Virus record (IMG/VR): IMGVR_UViG_3300049320_000001
Location: 1 to 64,000 of that record
Reading direction: 5' to 3' (one strand)
Length of the DNA stretch: 64,000 nt
DNA from: a virus
Taxonomy: Duplodnaviria > Caudoviricetes
Position 1 is the first letter of the stretch, and every line of letters begins with the position of its first letter. Under the pieces are notes generated by a model that was not told the DNA's origin, did not search any database, and was given only the letters and a program-made list of their open reading frames with translations. Positions 3,254 to 60,663 of this stretch are shown here, piece by piece. Made by a program: the position numbers and the translations under genes.

Positions 3254-5690
3254 TCTTGAGGCACTGAGCCAGCCCTACCTTCCGAATGCCTCCTCTTCTC
3301 GGGAGGTGGACATCACGAAGTCGATGGCTCAGGTGTTCCTCACTGCTGTTGTCGCGGCCAAGATCCTGGACTGGTCAGGGCTGGGTCAGAGGTGGTCGAG
3401 GTCTGGGTTCAACACGGGTGACTTCGATGTCCAGATCTCGGGCCACTTCAAGGAGGCCTTCAAGGTCGGGATGTCTGTCTTGCTGGCTGAGGCAGCCATC
3501 TACGGCATCTCCAAGAAGGGCGTGGATGTCAAGGTCGAGGACAAGGTCATTCAGGACTGGTCCATCACCTATGCCGCTCAGATCGCTGAGCAGGTCGCCA
3601 ACCAGTCCACCATGGCGGTCAGAGAGATCGTCAACGCAGGGCTGAACCAGCGCCTTCCTGCCCAGGCCCTGGCGGATCGGGCTCAGGCTGCCTACGGGCT
3701 GGACCCGAGGTCGGCCAACACCTACCAGGCCTACATGAGCAGCAAGACCCTGCCCAAGAACAGCACCCCTATCGATGAGGTGTCGGCCCTGCTTGTGCAG
3801 CGGGCGATGACCATCGGGGACGTGAACACCTTCACGGGCATCAACTTCGGGGTCCAGTTGAGCCTGATGTCCGCTCTGGGGCACGGAATCCTTCCCACTG
3901 ATGCCCGCAAGGTGTGGCTCACCGCTCTGGATGAGCGGGTCTGTCCTACCTGTGGACCGATGGACGGTGTGGCAGTCCCGGTGAACGAGGTGTTCACCAT
4001 CCTCATGCCCCTGCCCAAGACCGCGAGGGGCAAGAACCGCAAGAGCGTGGACGCCATCGTCCCGCCGATCCACCCCAACTGCCGCTGCACCATCGTCCTG
4101 GAGGACGAGTTCCTCGGCGGGTTGATCACTCGTACGGCTCGGTACGACGCTGACGCCAACCACCTGGCTCGTCTGTTCTCCGAGCCGGAAGACCTGGTCG
4201 TCCAGAAGTTCTGGGAGTCCAACAAGCACCCCCGAGACGGCAAGGGGCGCTTTGCGGAGCGCTGGGGGAACATGAGTTCTGGCCAGCGAACTACGGCTGT
4301 CTACATGGGTGGGGCAGTTGGCATTGCCAGTGGGGCCATGATCGCGGACATCAGCAATCACCTGGTCAAGATGATCAAGGGCACGACTGAGGGCAAGTCG
4401 TGGTGGGACGTCAAGTACCCGACCTACACCTACTACAAGGCTCCTGTTGAACTCCCACCTAAGCCCACCTTGGCCAAGGAGACACTCAACAGTCTCGCTG
4501 CGAGGATGAACCTTCTACCTGAGTTCTCTCTCGGTGGGTCCAATCTGATTGAACAGACTTTCAAGAACCGTGACGAAGTCGCGTACCTGAAGCATCTATC
4601 AGAAGACATCAGGCAATGGACTGGTGTGTACAGGTTCAAGTCTGGTGGTTTCTCCCTAGGTAAGTACGAGACTCTTACCGAGATGGTGGAGAACGCTCCT
4701 GTCAGCGAAGAGACCATCTATCGCGGGATCAAGGGGAAGACCAGTGATCCCAAACTCAAGAAGGCGCTGGAGGAACTGACTGGCAAGTTGAGTCTTGTCG
4801 GTGAAGAAGTAGAACTACCACTTGCCTCTTGGACCAAGAACACCGAGACAGCAAAGATCTTCGCTGACGACATCCACAAGAGCGGCATTATCCTCCAGGT
4901 GAAGGGGGCTCGGGCTCTCAACATCAGCCCGATGTCACACCATGCCGAGGCTGAATGGCTGACGACTGGTCACTTCAAGGTGGTCTCTGTCGAGGCGAAG
5001 GACGCCCGGATGGGTGGCCGACTTCTCGTCACCTTGGTCCAGGTTGCCCATGTCGTGAAGGCGATGCCGCTCAATCTCATCTACCGGGACAGGTTGGGTC
5101 GGTTCGCTGCTGCGGGGGCTGGGGTTGCCGCCATCGGTGCGGGAGCCAAGGGTGCCCACTACATGGCAGTCGAGGCCCCCATTGCTGGGCGGACTCGTCC
5201 CGAGTTGAACTCACGGCTTCAGAAGACAGACCAGCGGATCAAGCACCTTCAGACCGGGACGTACATGCTCCCGCGTTCCTACCTGGATGCTCACAGGCGT
5301 GCGTGGGGGTTCCGCATCGGTCAAGACGCCCATGTCGATGCCCTCGCTGCCAAGATCAAGGAGGAGGGCTTCAAGAGGCCCATCACCCTCCACGTCTACA
5401 ACGACCAGTCCGTCATCTGGGACGGTCAGCACCGCCTAGAGGCTGCCTACCGACTCGGTCGTAGTCGCATCCCTGTTCGCGTGGTGCGTCGGCACGAGGA
5501 CTTCGATCCCTTCCAGGAGGGGTTGCTGGGGCTGATCGAGGAGCGCCGTACCCGCAGGCTCCGGCAGGAGATCGCCCGACGTCCAAACCAGAATGTGGGC
5601 AGTCTAAAGATCGGCCAGACCCCGCGTCAGAGGATTAGCAACAACGTCAACAGGGTCTTCATCGCCCGTGGCGAGGGCCAGACCGACTAA
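3240..5690 (+). CDS. MuF/SPP1 gp7-like head morphogenesis protein fused to ADP-ribosyltransferase and ParB/Srx-like domains
   Basis: KVWLTALDERVCPTCGPMDG..PPIHPNCRCTI (MuF); IYRGI..LASWT..AEAEWL (R-S-ExE ART); VDALAAKIKEEGFKRPI..WDGQHRLEAA..L..IPVRV (ParB-N). ATG 3240 preferred over TTG 3225. Confidence 0.85.
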   Translation: MTTPDLEALSQPYLPNASSSREVDITKSMAQVFLTAVVAAKILDWSGLGQRWSRSGFNTGDFDVQISGHFKEAFKVGMSVLLAEAAIYGISKKGVDVKVEDKVIQDWSITYAAQIAEQVANQSTMAVREIVNAGLNQRLPAQALADRAQAAYGLDPRSANTYQAYMSSKTLPKNSTPIDEVSALLVQRAMTIGDVNTFTGINFGVQLSLMSALGHGILPTDARKVWLTALDERVCPTCGPMDGVAVPVNEVFTILMPLPKTARGKNRKSVDAIVPPIHPNCRCTIVLEDEFLGGLITRTARYDADANHLARLFSEPEDLVVQKFWESNKHPRDGKGRFAERWGNMSSGQRTTAVYMGGAVGIASGAMIADISNHLVKMIKGTTEGKSWWDVKYPTYTYYKAPVELPPKPTLAKETLNSLAARMNLLPEFSLGGSNLIEQTFKNRDEVAYLKHLSEDIRQWTGVYRFKSGGFSLGKYETLTEMVENAPVSEETIYRGIKGKTSDPKLKKALEELTGKLSLVGEEVELPLASWTKNTETAKIFADDIHKSGIILQVKGARALNISPMSHHAEAEWLTTGHFKVVSVEAKDARMGGRLLVTLVQVAHVVKAMPLNLIYRDRLGRFAAAGAGVAAIGAGAKGAHYMAVEAPIAGRTRPELNSRLQKTDQRIKHLQTGTYMLPRSYLDAHRRAWGFRIGQDAHVDALAAKIKEEGFKRPITLHVYNDQSVIWDGQHRLEAAYRLGRSRIPVRVVRRHEDFDPFQEGLLGLIEERRTRRLRQEIARRPNQNVGSLKIGQTPRQRISNNVNRVFIARGEGQTD

Positions 5691-53605: not shown

Positions 53606-54696
53606 CAACAAAGCCCCGGCTACCTTTCGTATACCGTCGCCATCACTGGGCTTATACGGGGTCAGAAAGACCGGGGCTTTGTGCCTCTATGGGCTCGTAT
53701 GGTGCAGATAAGAAACCGCAGGCATGTCTTCTTCACCAGACTTCTGAACTTTCGGAGTCCCCACACCTCTCTCGATCCTCCCGGACCTGGCCTATTCATG
53801 GGGTTGGCTCACAGCGTCTGGCCTAGACGGCGGGGTTACCCGCAGGGTTCATGTTCCTCCTACTTCGCCGTATTCCGGATCGGTGGACTTCCTGGCCTCC
53901 TACACCACGGAGGCCCCATAGAAGAGCCCCCACCCGATGACAGATGGGGGCCGGTGCGCCAGGGGAGACTCGCACTCCCAGAGAACCTTGCCATGTTGAA
54001 GTTTGGTGGACTCGTGGCTCGGAGCCAACGAGCGGGGTGACAGTCGGTGCGACGTTGTGCACTGCACCGTATGGCCGTCTCTGGCGCTGTCAGACGAGGG
54101 AGAGCCACGTTGTGTCGCTGCGGCTAACGCTCAGTCGTAGAGCGATCCTTGCCGCGCTCTCCGTGCTGACCCAGTCATCATACCGCTCCAACCCGCTACA
54201 GCGCAACACCCCCACTGCTTGGGGCAAGTAGGGGTGTTGGCTTGGCGCAGGTACGGCTCAGGAACAGGATTCCGTCATGGCCGTCCTTCGAGCGGAGGCC
54301 CGCCCTCTTCTTAGAGACAGGAGGCTCGTTGACGCCTGAGGCAAGTCTACTGCACTTACCTATACATAGCAAAGGACCCCCAGAGGTCTCTTTGACGTGG
54401 GGGTCCGCCGTACATCAGGCGCTGGCTTGCTGTGTGCAACCTATCGGATACAGAGAACCCTACGGTTCCCCTGCCGGTTGAGCAGGGCCAGCCTTACCGG
54501 CTGCTCGGCCTGATCTTCCAGAGTGTCTCGTGTTCGCTCTGGGTTGATCGTGTGCCCTTTGGTCCAGGACTGGGCACTGCATCCTGCAACACTTCGCGGC
54601 TGTTGAAGCACCGGCCTCCTGGAAGATGAGGTCTTAGCGTCCGAGTGGAGAGCGTGTCTCCCTGGCGACCAGGGCCAATCTCCATTCCTCTAACGC
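53606..54696 (-). ncRNA. Candidate large structured non-coding RNA (about 1.1 kb), family unassigned
   Basis: Bounded by a consensus promoter and a terminator, no ORF with phage-like codon usage, many local and long-range helices with GNRA-type loops. Confidence 0.65.
53610..53680 (-). terminator. Long hairpin/terminator at the 3' end of the candidate ncRNA
   Basis: AAAGCCCCGG..CCGGGGCTTT closing nested CTTTC/GAAAG and CGTATA/TATACG helices, followed by TTTGTT. Confidence 0.7.
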
Positions 54697-54702
54697 ACCA
54701 CA

Positions 54703-54731
54703 AACATAACAGATACTGCCTCTATTGTCAA
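54703..54731 (-). promoter_or_regulatory. Strong SigA/HrdB-type promoter
   Basis: TTGACA-17-TATGTT. Confidence 0.85.
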
Positions 54732-55580: not shown

Positions 55581-56861
55581 ATGTCACGTCATCCAGAGGA
55601 GATGCTGCTCTCGGCTCTGATCAACACCGGAGACGTACTGCAAGCGGAGAACCTCGGAGTCACCACAGGTCACTTCCACGAGTGGAAAGAAGCCTACGAG
55701 TGGCTCACCGACTACAAGATCAAGTACAAGACAGAACCAAGTAGGACAGCGTTCCTGTCAGCCTTCAAGGACTTCCCCTTCTCAGACCACGCGGATGTTG
55801 AGTACGCCGCAGATCAGGTCAAGAGGAGCCACCTCAAGTACGCCGTCACCCGGCTGATCCGGGAGACCTCAGGACACATCAAGGACGACGAGCCAGAGAC
55901 TGCTCTGGACCACCTCCACTCTCAGGCTCAGAAGATCGCTTCCAACATCGACACGAGCAACACCGTGGCGAACTCGATCACCGACTACTCCGCTTCCCTG
56001 GACTTCGCCCTGGAGAGGGCTGCCTCCGACGTACCTCTCGGTGTCCCCTTCGCACACCACACGGTTCAGGAGCGAACCCTGGGGATGTACGGGGGAGACC
56101 TCTGGATCAAGGCTGCACGTCTTGGCCAGGGCAAGACCTGGGACCTGGTCAACGACTCCTGTGCTGCTCTCATGGCTGGGAAGACCGTGCTGTTCAACTC
56201 GCTGGAGATGAACAAGCGGCAGATGGAGTACCGCTTCCAGACCGTGCTGGGTCAGATGCTCGGTCACAAGTTGACTAACGACCAGATCGCCAAGGGCAGG
56301 GGCCTGGACCTGCTGGAGTACAAGGCGATGCTCTCGGACATCTCCTCGCAGGTCCCTGGAACCCTGCTCATCAACGACCGTCGTCGTGGTCGTGTCACTG
56401 CTCGGACCCTCGCTGGTCAGGTGAACAAGCACGTCCCTGACATCGTGGTGATCGACTACCTGACGTTGATGAGTTCCTCCTCGACCAACAAGTTCTCGCA
56501 GTCGTGGGAGAACATCAGCCAGATCGTGGAGGAAGTGAAGGAAGTCGCCTGTCAGTTCGACATCCCCATCCTCACTGCTGCCCAGATCAACCGTGACGGT
56601 GAGAGGGGTGGGTGGCGTCCTCCCAAGGCTGTGAACCTCGCTGGCTCCGACTCCCTGGGTCGTGATGCCGACTGCGTGGTGACGATGAAGAGGTTCGGTA
56701 ACGGAGCAATGGTCTACTCACTGGAGAAGAACCGCCATGGTGCAGCAGGGGATGTCTGGTTCAGCAGGTTCGATCCCAACAACGGTGACTTCCGTGAGAT
56801 CACTCGCACAGAAGCGGAAGCGATCCTTGCCGAAGAGGGCGAGTTCGAGGACGAGGTATGA
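55581..56861 (+). CDS. dnaB: DnaB-like (SF4) replicative helicase
   Basis: AARLGQGKTW (Walker A), SLEM, VVIDYLTLM (Walker B), AAQINR, GSDSLGRDAD, LEKNRHG; start could be further upstream. Confidence 0.92.
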   Translation: MSRHPEEMLLSALINTGDVLQAENLGVTTGHFHEWKEAYEWLTDYKIKYKTEPSRTAFLSAFKDFPFSDHADVEYAADQVKRSHLKYAVTRLIRETSGHIKDDEPETALDHLHSQAQKIASNIDTSNTVANSITDYSASLDFALERAASDVPLGVPFAHHTVQERTLGMYGGDLWIKAARLGQGKTWDLVNDSCAALMAGKTVLFNSLEMNKRQMEYRFQTVLGQMLGHKLTNDQIAKGRGLDLLEYKAMLSDISSQVPGTLLINDRRRGRVTARTLAGQVNKHVPDIVVIDYLTLMSSSSTNKFSQSWENISQIVEEVKEVACQFDIPILTAAQINRDGERGGWRPPKAVNLAGSDSLGRDADCVVTMKRFGNGAMVYSLEKNRHGAAGDVWFSRFDPNNGDFREITRTEAEAILAEEGEFEDEV

Positions 56862-60580: not shown

Positions 60581-60662
60581 GGTCGAGTGGTGGAACTGGT
60601 AGACACACAGCACTCAAACTGCTGCGCCGCAAGGCGTGAGGGTTCGACTCCCTCCTCGACCA
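60581..60662 (+). tRNA. trnL: tRNA-Leu(CAA), CCA not encoded
   Basis: Acceptor GGTCGAG/CTCGACC-A, D loop TGGTAGAC, anticodon arm CAGCA-CTCAAAC-TGCTG, long variable arm, GGTTCGACTCC. Confidence 0.95.
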
Positions 60663-60663
60663 C

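Follow-up and report, generated by a model that had tools for sequence, protein, structure and literature searches.

The locus described here lies in a phage whose IMG/VR virus record is 81.65 kb long; the stretch that we analysed, hereafter the window, comprises its first 64 kb (G+C ~62%). It occupies positions 53606-54731 on the minus strand and adjoins the genes for DnaB, primase and DnaE, with the helicase-primase-polymerase genes being divergently transcribed (Table 1). The nearest cultured phages, with a DnaB identity of only ~31%, are Gordonia and Brevibacterium phages; the source phage itself is uncultured, and its hosts are probably actinobacteria. The sequencing runs containing the locus were soil metagenomes without exception, and no RNA run was listed among them. 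Four soil DNA runs yielded identical 151-nt pieces with no variants, and therefore added nothing to the covariation analysis presented below. In a collection of 5.8 billion proteins the protein encoded upstream of the RNA had no homologue except itself, and we found no reverse transcriptase, CCA-adding enzyme, Ro (TROVE) or RtcB encoded in the phage. ARAGORN called a single tRNA in the whole phage, a tRNA-Leu(CAA) at 60581-60663, and neither a tRNA nor a tmRNA in the locus.

The locus is non-coding. As a preliminary description of this DNA had held, it contains no protein gene, with the longest open reading frame (ORF) on the transcribed strand being 82 aa long. GC1, GC2 and GC3 were flat across the six frames of the locus (0.59-0.62), as compared to GC3 values of 0.68-0.93 in the neighbouring genes. 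Since TAA, TAG and TGA each occur in all frames, an altered genetic code cannot restore an ORF. The same description had pointed to conservation of codons, in place of base pairs, as a sign that would speak against an RNA; tblastx matches between homologues were instead spread evenly over the six frames, showing that nucleotides and not codons are conserved. A 9-codon ORF (53823-53852, minus strand) is located within the 3' portion of the RNA and begins 3 nt downstream of a perfect AGGAGG, a Shine-Dalgarno spacing too short for a usual start; this ORF is absent from the related phages L004 and L007 (see below).

Table 1. Features of the non-coding locus and its surroundings, in window coordinates; functional labels of promoters and terminators are predictions.
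Feature	Position	Strand	Remarks
Outer promoter P1	54703-54731	minus	consensus -35, 17-nt spacer, TG-extended -10; predicted start ~54696
Conserved 5' element	54654-54674	minus	6-bp hairpin with 3-nt loop, then AGACAC; 23 nt after the predicted start
Internal hairpin and U-tract (UUUG)	54371-54406	minus	candidate terminator of a ~330-nt first RNA; -23.2 kcal/mol, z -3.2
Internal promoter-like sequence P2	54344-54372	minus	TTG-type -35, 17 nt, TAGACT; predicted start ~54337
Strong hairpin	54204-54239	minus	possible second internal junction; conserved block after it reads as a weak promoter
tRNA-like module	53955-54087	minus	acceptor-like stem, three internal hairpins, T-arm; 81.5 bits with model R1
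Acceptor-like stem of the module (7 bp)	54087-54081 with 53962-53956	minus	
T-arm of the module	53979-53963	minus	discriminator A at 53955
Hairpin directly 3' of the module	53925-53952	minus	covarying stems in L004 and L007
Long 3' hairpin and U-tract (outer terminator)	53606-53683	minus	apex conserved in relatives
DnaB gene	55587-56861		query for relatives

Promoter and terminator signals

The two outer signals that the preliminary description had reported are both present. The promoter (P1) reads TTGACA-17-TATGTT, and the more general pattern TTGACA-17-TAYNNT has only two matches in the 64 kb, where 0.03 would be expected, the second of them driving the gene just upstream. At the opposite end, the terminal hairpin with its U-tract has a folding energy of -39.3 kcal/mol (z -3.8). 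The further claim that these signals delimit a single promoter-to-terminator unit is doubtful, as an internal hairpin ending in UUUG is immediately followed by a promoter-like sequence (P2; Table 1).

When promoter-like sites were sought with relaxed criteria on the minus strand between 53560 and 54760, three were found as compared to 0.04 expected, namely the outer promoter, P2 and the promoter of the next gene. The internal promoters are weak, matching 8 of the 12 consensus positions. A second internal junction may lie at the strong hairpin further downstream, where a -10 sequence TATGAT (54182-54177, minus strand) gives a weaker promoter match than its counterparts in L004 and L007; the conserved block to which it belongs (54206-54177) could be an RNA element instead of a promoter.

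Comparable junctions were found in the related phages. In L002, a hairpin with a U-tract lies 313-333 nt after the first start, with an internal promoter behind it at the same relative place as P2; the start of this promoter is ~90 nt 5' of the tRNA-like module described below. L004 and L007 carry a hairpin followed by TTGCAT-17-TAnnnT at the place homologous to the hairpin at 54239-54204. The neighbouring genes each have their own promoter and their own hairpin. Since junctions of this type, joining a hairpin and U-tract to a promoter-like sequence, occur inside the locus and recur in its relatives, the signals in the sequence make it most likely that the locus consists of two, perhaps three, tandem RNA cassettes and not of one 1.1-kb RNA. 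Our best reading predicts a first cassette of ~330 nt (54696 to ~54370), perhaps a second of ~140 nt (54337 to ~54200), and a last one of ~565-730 nt ending at 53606, to which the tRNA-like module would belong.

Conserved elements in related phages

Searching with the DnaB protein retrieved relatives with 66-90% identity. In every contig with a DnaB identity of 66-80% that reached far enough upstream, a gene-free gap was found at the equivalent position, flanked by a small gene on one side and further small genes on the other, and always on the same strand. The gaps of these relatives (L002, L004, L007, L011, L017 and L018) measure ~0.8 to 1.9 kb and show almost no similarity to each other by blastn; the units that they contain vary in length from ~0.64 to 1.8 kb and also differ in the content of their modules.

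A tRNA-like module of ~133 nt is common to seven phages and to a further contig, L110, giving eight sequences. Its T-arm consists of a 5-bp stem and a 7-nt loop, with the 3' strand of the acceptor-like stem following directly. All T-loops have U at position 1, a purine at position 4, A at position 5 and a closing G-C pair, in agreement with the T-loop motif; the window T-loop deviates from the tRNA consensus at the second position. The module thereby has the acceptor stem, T-arm and discriminator of a tRNA (RF00005). Its interior holds three hairpins of variable length and sequence, and identity with tRNA was rejected since there is neither a D arm nor a 7-nt anticodon loop, and the loops of the internal hairpins vary in both length and sequence. 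The tmRNA family (RF00023) was rejected as well: ARAGORN and Rfam were negative, and all eight sequences have either C-G or G-C as the 3:70 pair, not G3:U70.

With all rows in the correct register, 55 of the 56 cells of the acceptor-like stem were paired, and five of its seven positions showed between two and five types of pair. In the alignment produced by the covariance model, two rows of which were one column out of register, 88% of the cells were paired and the covariation score was 0.417, as compared to 0.121 in shuffles, with none of 500 shuffles reaching it, a statistic inflated by the relatedness of the eight homologues, which fall into two clades; in this alignment, sliding the partners by one column reduced pairing to ~50%, and the covariation collapsed at shifts of one column or more. 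The internal helices H1 and H2 start at similar positions and differ in sequence in all homologues; having been picked separately in each sequence, they pair at 100% partly by construction and constitute weaker evidence. Folded alone and without constraints, the window module formed a five-way junction. The covariance model R1 detected only these phages among 58 loci that included distant DnaB neighbourhoods, and found one copy in the source phage. On the evidence of these alignments and searches, the stems of the module covary, making it the sole element of the locus with clear covariation, and the family is absent from Rfam.

Two further elements are shared by the units. The first is a 5' hairpin of 5-6 bp with a loop of 3 nt (4 nt in L007), followed by an AGAYAY-type motif, which was found in all seven units at 16-25 nt after the predicted start and shows compensatory stem changes among them. 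The second is the 3' hairpin that closes the units, which is 55-75 nt long and covaries in its basal stems; its apex carries a ~16-nt motif, of which L002, L004, L007 and L017 have near-identical copies and the window an altered one. Consensus folding gave less: RNAalifold detected no net covariation (term +0.86) in the 3' domain of the three clade-A sequences (the window, L004 and L007), for which our structural reading is confined to the two hairpins, and the MAFFT alignment of the 5' domains, at 39% column identity, was too poor for this purpose. Since they share the module together with these 5' and 3' elements, the units are homologous from end to end, with a fluid middle.

The sequences surrounding the module include further tRNA-related elements in some relatives. 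The L018 unit contains an initiator-type tRNA-Met (3989-4065, minus strand), the L017 unit a mini tRNA-like element of 72 nt, in which an acceptor stem is combined with a T-arm and a single further arm, and the L002 unit a 96-nt tRNA-like element that ARAGORN called as tRNA-Trp. A genuine tRNA-Met and tRNA-like remnants in the gaps of relatives, together with rapidly diverging spacers and the off-consensus second position of the window T-loop, are what a decaying tRNA island might leave behind, with the module and the mini elements being tRNA pseudogenes and the remainder functionless spacer. However, the 133-nt architecture is retained with compensatory changes in all eight homologues while its surroundings have been randomised, and the phage is otherwise tightly packed and devotes to this locus a promoter that is among the best in the window; we therefore regard decay as quite improbable.

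The position of the locus also raises the possibility of an element acting at the DNA level, such as a transcription-activated replication origin beside the divergent helicase-primase-polymerase genes. The locus adjoins DnaB, primase and DnaE, and both distant relatives (DnaB identity ~52-55%) and a Gordonia phage have gaps of 1.2-1.4 kb near DnaB. We looked for iterons and for an A+T-rich stretch and found none; moreover, compensatory stem changes are the mark of an RNA and not of DNA sites, and the distant gaps are devoid of the module, making such an origin very improbable. Hidden small protein genes, for which one could invoke the 9-codon ORF at 53852-53823 with its perfect Shine-Dalgarno sequence and the short ORFs that follow the 5' hairpin in L002 and L017, are more implausible still, because none of these ORFs is conserved, L011, L018 and the window have no ATG following the 5' hairpin, and there is neither codon bias nor a frame-specific tblastx signal.

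Beyond the close relatives, the module was missing from the gaps of the distant ones, which measure 1.2-1.4 kb. One of these, in L211 (DnaB identity 52%), is a gene-free gap of 1.4 kb (3602-5000) directly upstream of DnaB that lacks the module. In the cultured Gordonia phage ChisanaKitsune (NC_071006; L254:1782-2943), whose distantly related DnaB is 31% identical, an unannotated gap of 1.16 kb lies at the divergence point beside the replication genes; this gap contained no Rfam match and no T-arm module. A DnaB scan of IMG/VR returned one true relative, and the metagenome DnaB scan returned mostly distant DnaB proteins with 30-39% identity, none of whose loci had the module. Among the 48 IMG/VR stretches that matched a T-arm pattern, the module was found only in L103 (which is the L002 contig) and in L110; the 82 stretches matching a clade-A pattern contained it in no case, and the 23 matching the motif of the 3' apex were all in unrelated contexts and within chance expectation. 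To date, the RNA family is known solely from a small clade of uncultured soil phages with genomes of ~82 kb.

Searches against known RNA families and phage sequences were negative. The comparison with known classes suggested in the preliminary description yielded no match of the locus to GOLLD, ROOL or any other family of Rfam 15 at the gathering score; with E-values up to 10, a 1.7-kb sequence covering the locus gave nothing relevant, GOLLD, ROOL, tRNA, tmRNA and YrlA included, and the same was true of the loci of nine relatives at E-values up to 1, GOLLD and ROOL included. A Twister-sister match overlapping the L007 module (E 0.22) was below the gathering score and was judged to be due to chance. 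The blastn comparison suggested alongside, run in distant mode against 50,697 phage records, also returned no match.

Folding energy is a poor guide at this locus. The long-range and local helices that had been singled out in the preliminary description do exist in the sequence, but the long-range ones are not conserved and have no evidential weight by themselves, as chance alone would yield ~36 complementary pairs of 7-mers in 1.09 kb; nor is the locus denser in helices than chance would have it, as compared to controls from the same window. For its minimum free energy (MFE), the minus strand gave a z-score of -4.5 and the plus strand one of -2.5, and six controls of equal length from the same window spanned -0.8 to -5.1, with two of the six at -5.0 and -5.1. 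Local stretches of 220 nt in the locus folded no better than its flanks. The full-length MFE structure omits the covarying module, whose acceptor stem and T-arm have pair probabilities below 0.01, which argues against trusting the MFE fold of the 1.09 kb and favours local or co-transcriptional folding, or processing. The long-range closures of this structure are unconserved and incompatible with the covarying module. It is therefore the comparative evidence, and not the folding energy, that supports a conserved structured RNA, and 'giant RNA' calls made from hairpin density in GC-rich phages need comparative support of this kind.

In the full-length MFE structure, the 5' element (54654-54674) pairs with the region of the T-arm (53956-53979, both on the minus strand) over ~10 bp. 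We considered this pairing as a conserved feature and rejected it, as it is found in the window only and is impossible in the sequences of the relatives.

An RNA-derived contig and comparison with known RNAs

Contig L110 (IMGVR_UViG_3300020069_000766; 2345 nt) bears on the expression of the locus. IMG/VR lists it as one fragment of a viral genome. Nucleotides 1-1780 encode a toti-like RNA-virus polymerase (RdRP_4, E 2.5e-104), and the last ~565 nt are collinear with the L002 and L017 units, beginning 68 nt ahead of the module and reaching into the 3' hairpin. L217, another contig from this virus, is identical up to nt 1780, after which its polymerase frame continues; L110 is hence an assembly chimera of two RNAs. 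To our knowledge, genomes of RNA viruses are recovered only from RNA-derived libraries, and we took the L110 sample to be RNA-derived solely because RNA-virus contigs came from it. By this reasoning, L110 implies that the module-bearing unit of a related phage existed as RNA, contiguous over nearly the predicted length, and it supports both expression and a last cassette of this size. The contiguous 565 nt fit an unprocessed RNA and a precursor equally well.

The closest structural parallel to the module that we examined is T4 species 1 RNA (rnaC), annotated as a small stable RNA of 139 nt (GenBank AF158101, 70908-71046; L253:2909-3047, minus strand). When we folded it, rnaC showed an acceptor-like closing stem, long arms where a tRNA has its D and anticodon arms, and a T-arm beside the 3' strand, an arrangement like that of the module. 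Beyond the T-arm the two have no similarity in sequence or by model. T4 rnaC is co-transcribed with tRNAs and sits among eight genuine tRNAs, whereas the source phage has a single tRNA elsewhere, and a tRNA inside the unit is seen only in its relatives; unlike rnaC, the module forms a five-way junction and is embedded in a much longer non-coding unit. T4 rnaC also has no Rfam family, its sole match being a sub-threshold resemblance to tRNA-Sec (17.5 bits, E 0.92), and we know of no function for it.

Class II tRNAs (Leu, Ser and Tyr; RF00005) likewise share with the module five arms, a 7-bp acceptor stem, a T-arm and a discriminator A. They are ~87 nt long, whereas the module has 133 nt and lacks an anticodon loop with U33, a D arm at position 10 and U8. 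The identity of tRNA-Leu and tRNA-Ser is independent of the anticodon. YrlA is a Y-RNA-like non-coding RNA, known from actinophages too, that has a tRNA-like domain with a T-arm; the module shares this domain, but its acceptor-like stem is closed by its own ends and not by a Ro-binding helix. As the YrlA model (RF02553) gave no match and the phage has no Ro (TROVE) gene, we rejected YrlA as an assignment.

Among large RNAs, the locus resembles GOLLD (RF01998) and ROOL (RF03087), which are large non-coding phage RNAs associated with tRNAs. GOLLD consists of a conserved and a variable part, sometimes has tRNAs in its linker, and occurs near tRNA islands (PMC12286853). This setting, a phage with tRNAs nearby or in a linker, has its counterpart here in the tRNA and tRNA-like elements of the relatives' units. 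The locus could accordingly encode a single giant ornate RNA of ~1.1 kb, functioning as one unit like GOLLD and ROOL, with the tRNA-like element placed in a linker and the internal hairpins being structural. The outer promoter and terminator are by far the strongest signals, all homologues combine the 5' element with the module and the 3' hairpin, GOLLD itself combines conserved and variable parts with tRNAs in the linker (PMC12286853), and L110 is contiguous over ~565 nt. Set against this, the GOLLD and ROOL models are negative in the locus and in nine relatives, the units range in length from ~0.64 to 1.8 kb and differ in content, and the folding energy is unexceptional; furthermore, the MFE long-range closures are unconserved and the internal terminator/promoter junctions, which set the locus apart from GOLLD and ROOL, recur in relatives, while a conserved large-scale architecture like theirs was not found. 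We therefore consider a single giant RNA unlikely, and less likely than tandem cassettes. From the structured-RNA proposal of the preliminary description we thus retain the non-coding character, the strong early-type promoter and a conserved RNA class absent from Rfam, and abandon the single giant ornate RNA.

Possible processing and role of the tRNA-like module

The reading that we favour, with a probability of roughly one half, is that of an early non-coding locus composed of two or three tandem cassettes, the last of which would release a stable tRNA mimic. For its transcription, processing and target we infer the following course. The host's housekeeping RNA polymerase would transcribe the locus early in infection. 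RNase P would then cut 5' of the acceptor-like stem, and the host's tRNA-maturation enzymes would trim the 3' end and add CCA. This cleavage would free a stable tRNA mimic of ~135 nt and at the same time set the ends of the flanking RNAs, as in the T4 tRNA cluster from which species 1 RNA arises. Among the genes of the phage itself, no CCA-adding enzyme, Ro or RtcB points to a dedicated pathway. Excision of the module is the most economical model, since the genuine tRNA in the unit of a relative must be cut out in order to work. Once released, the mimic might occupy a host factor that binds the elbow formed by the acceptor stem and T-arm of tRNAs. An acceptor stem beside a T-arm is the surface recognised by RNase P, RNase Z, the CCA-adding enzyme, EF-Tu and several synthetases.

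The locus represents a new RNA family of a known kind, that of phage tRNA-like stable RNAs and tRNA-associated large non-coding RNAs. More tentatively, and with rather less confidence than we attach to the cassettes and their product, the module may stand for a new class of phage tRNA mimics and for a wider habit, in which tRNA shapes devoid of an anticodon are placed in long early non-coding RNAs, where they would act as RNase P 'punctuation' and, at the same time, as decoys for host factors that bind the elbow. If this is true, the targets of such decoys might include, for example, defence nucleases or synthetases.

Phages spend scarce genome space on large non-coding RNAs, the roles of which are unknown fifty years after T4 species 1 RNA and despite the recent structures of GOLLD and ROOL. 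To these the locus adds a family with a defined, covarying, tRNA-shaped core that is retained while its surroundings change. The core is compact enough, at 133 nt, for RNase P cleavage, CCA addition, aminoacylation and the binding of host factors to be tested directly.

The tRNA-Met in the unit of L018 has a C1-A72 mismatch, which is typical of bacterial initiator tRNAs.
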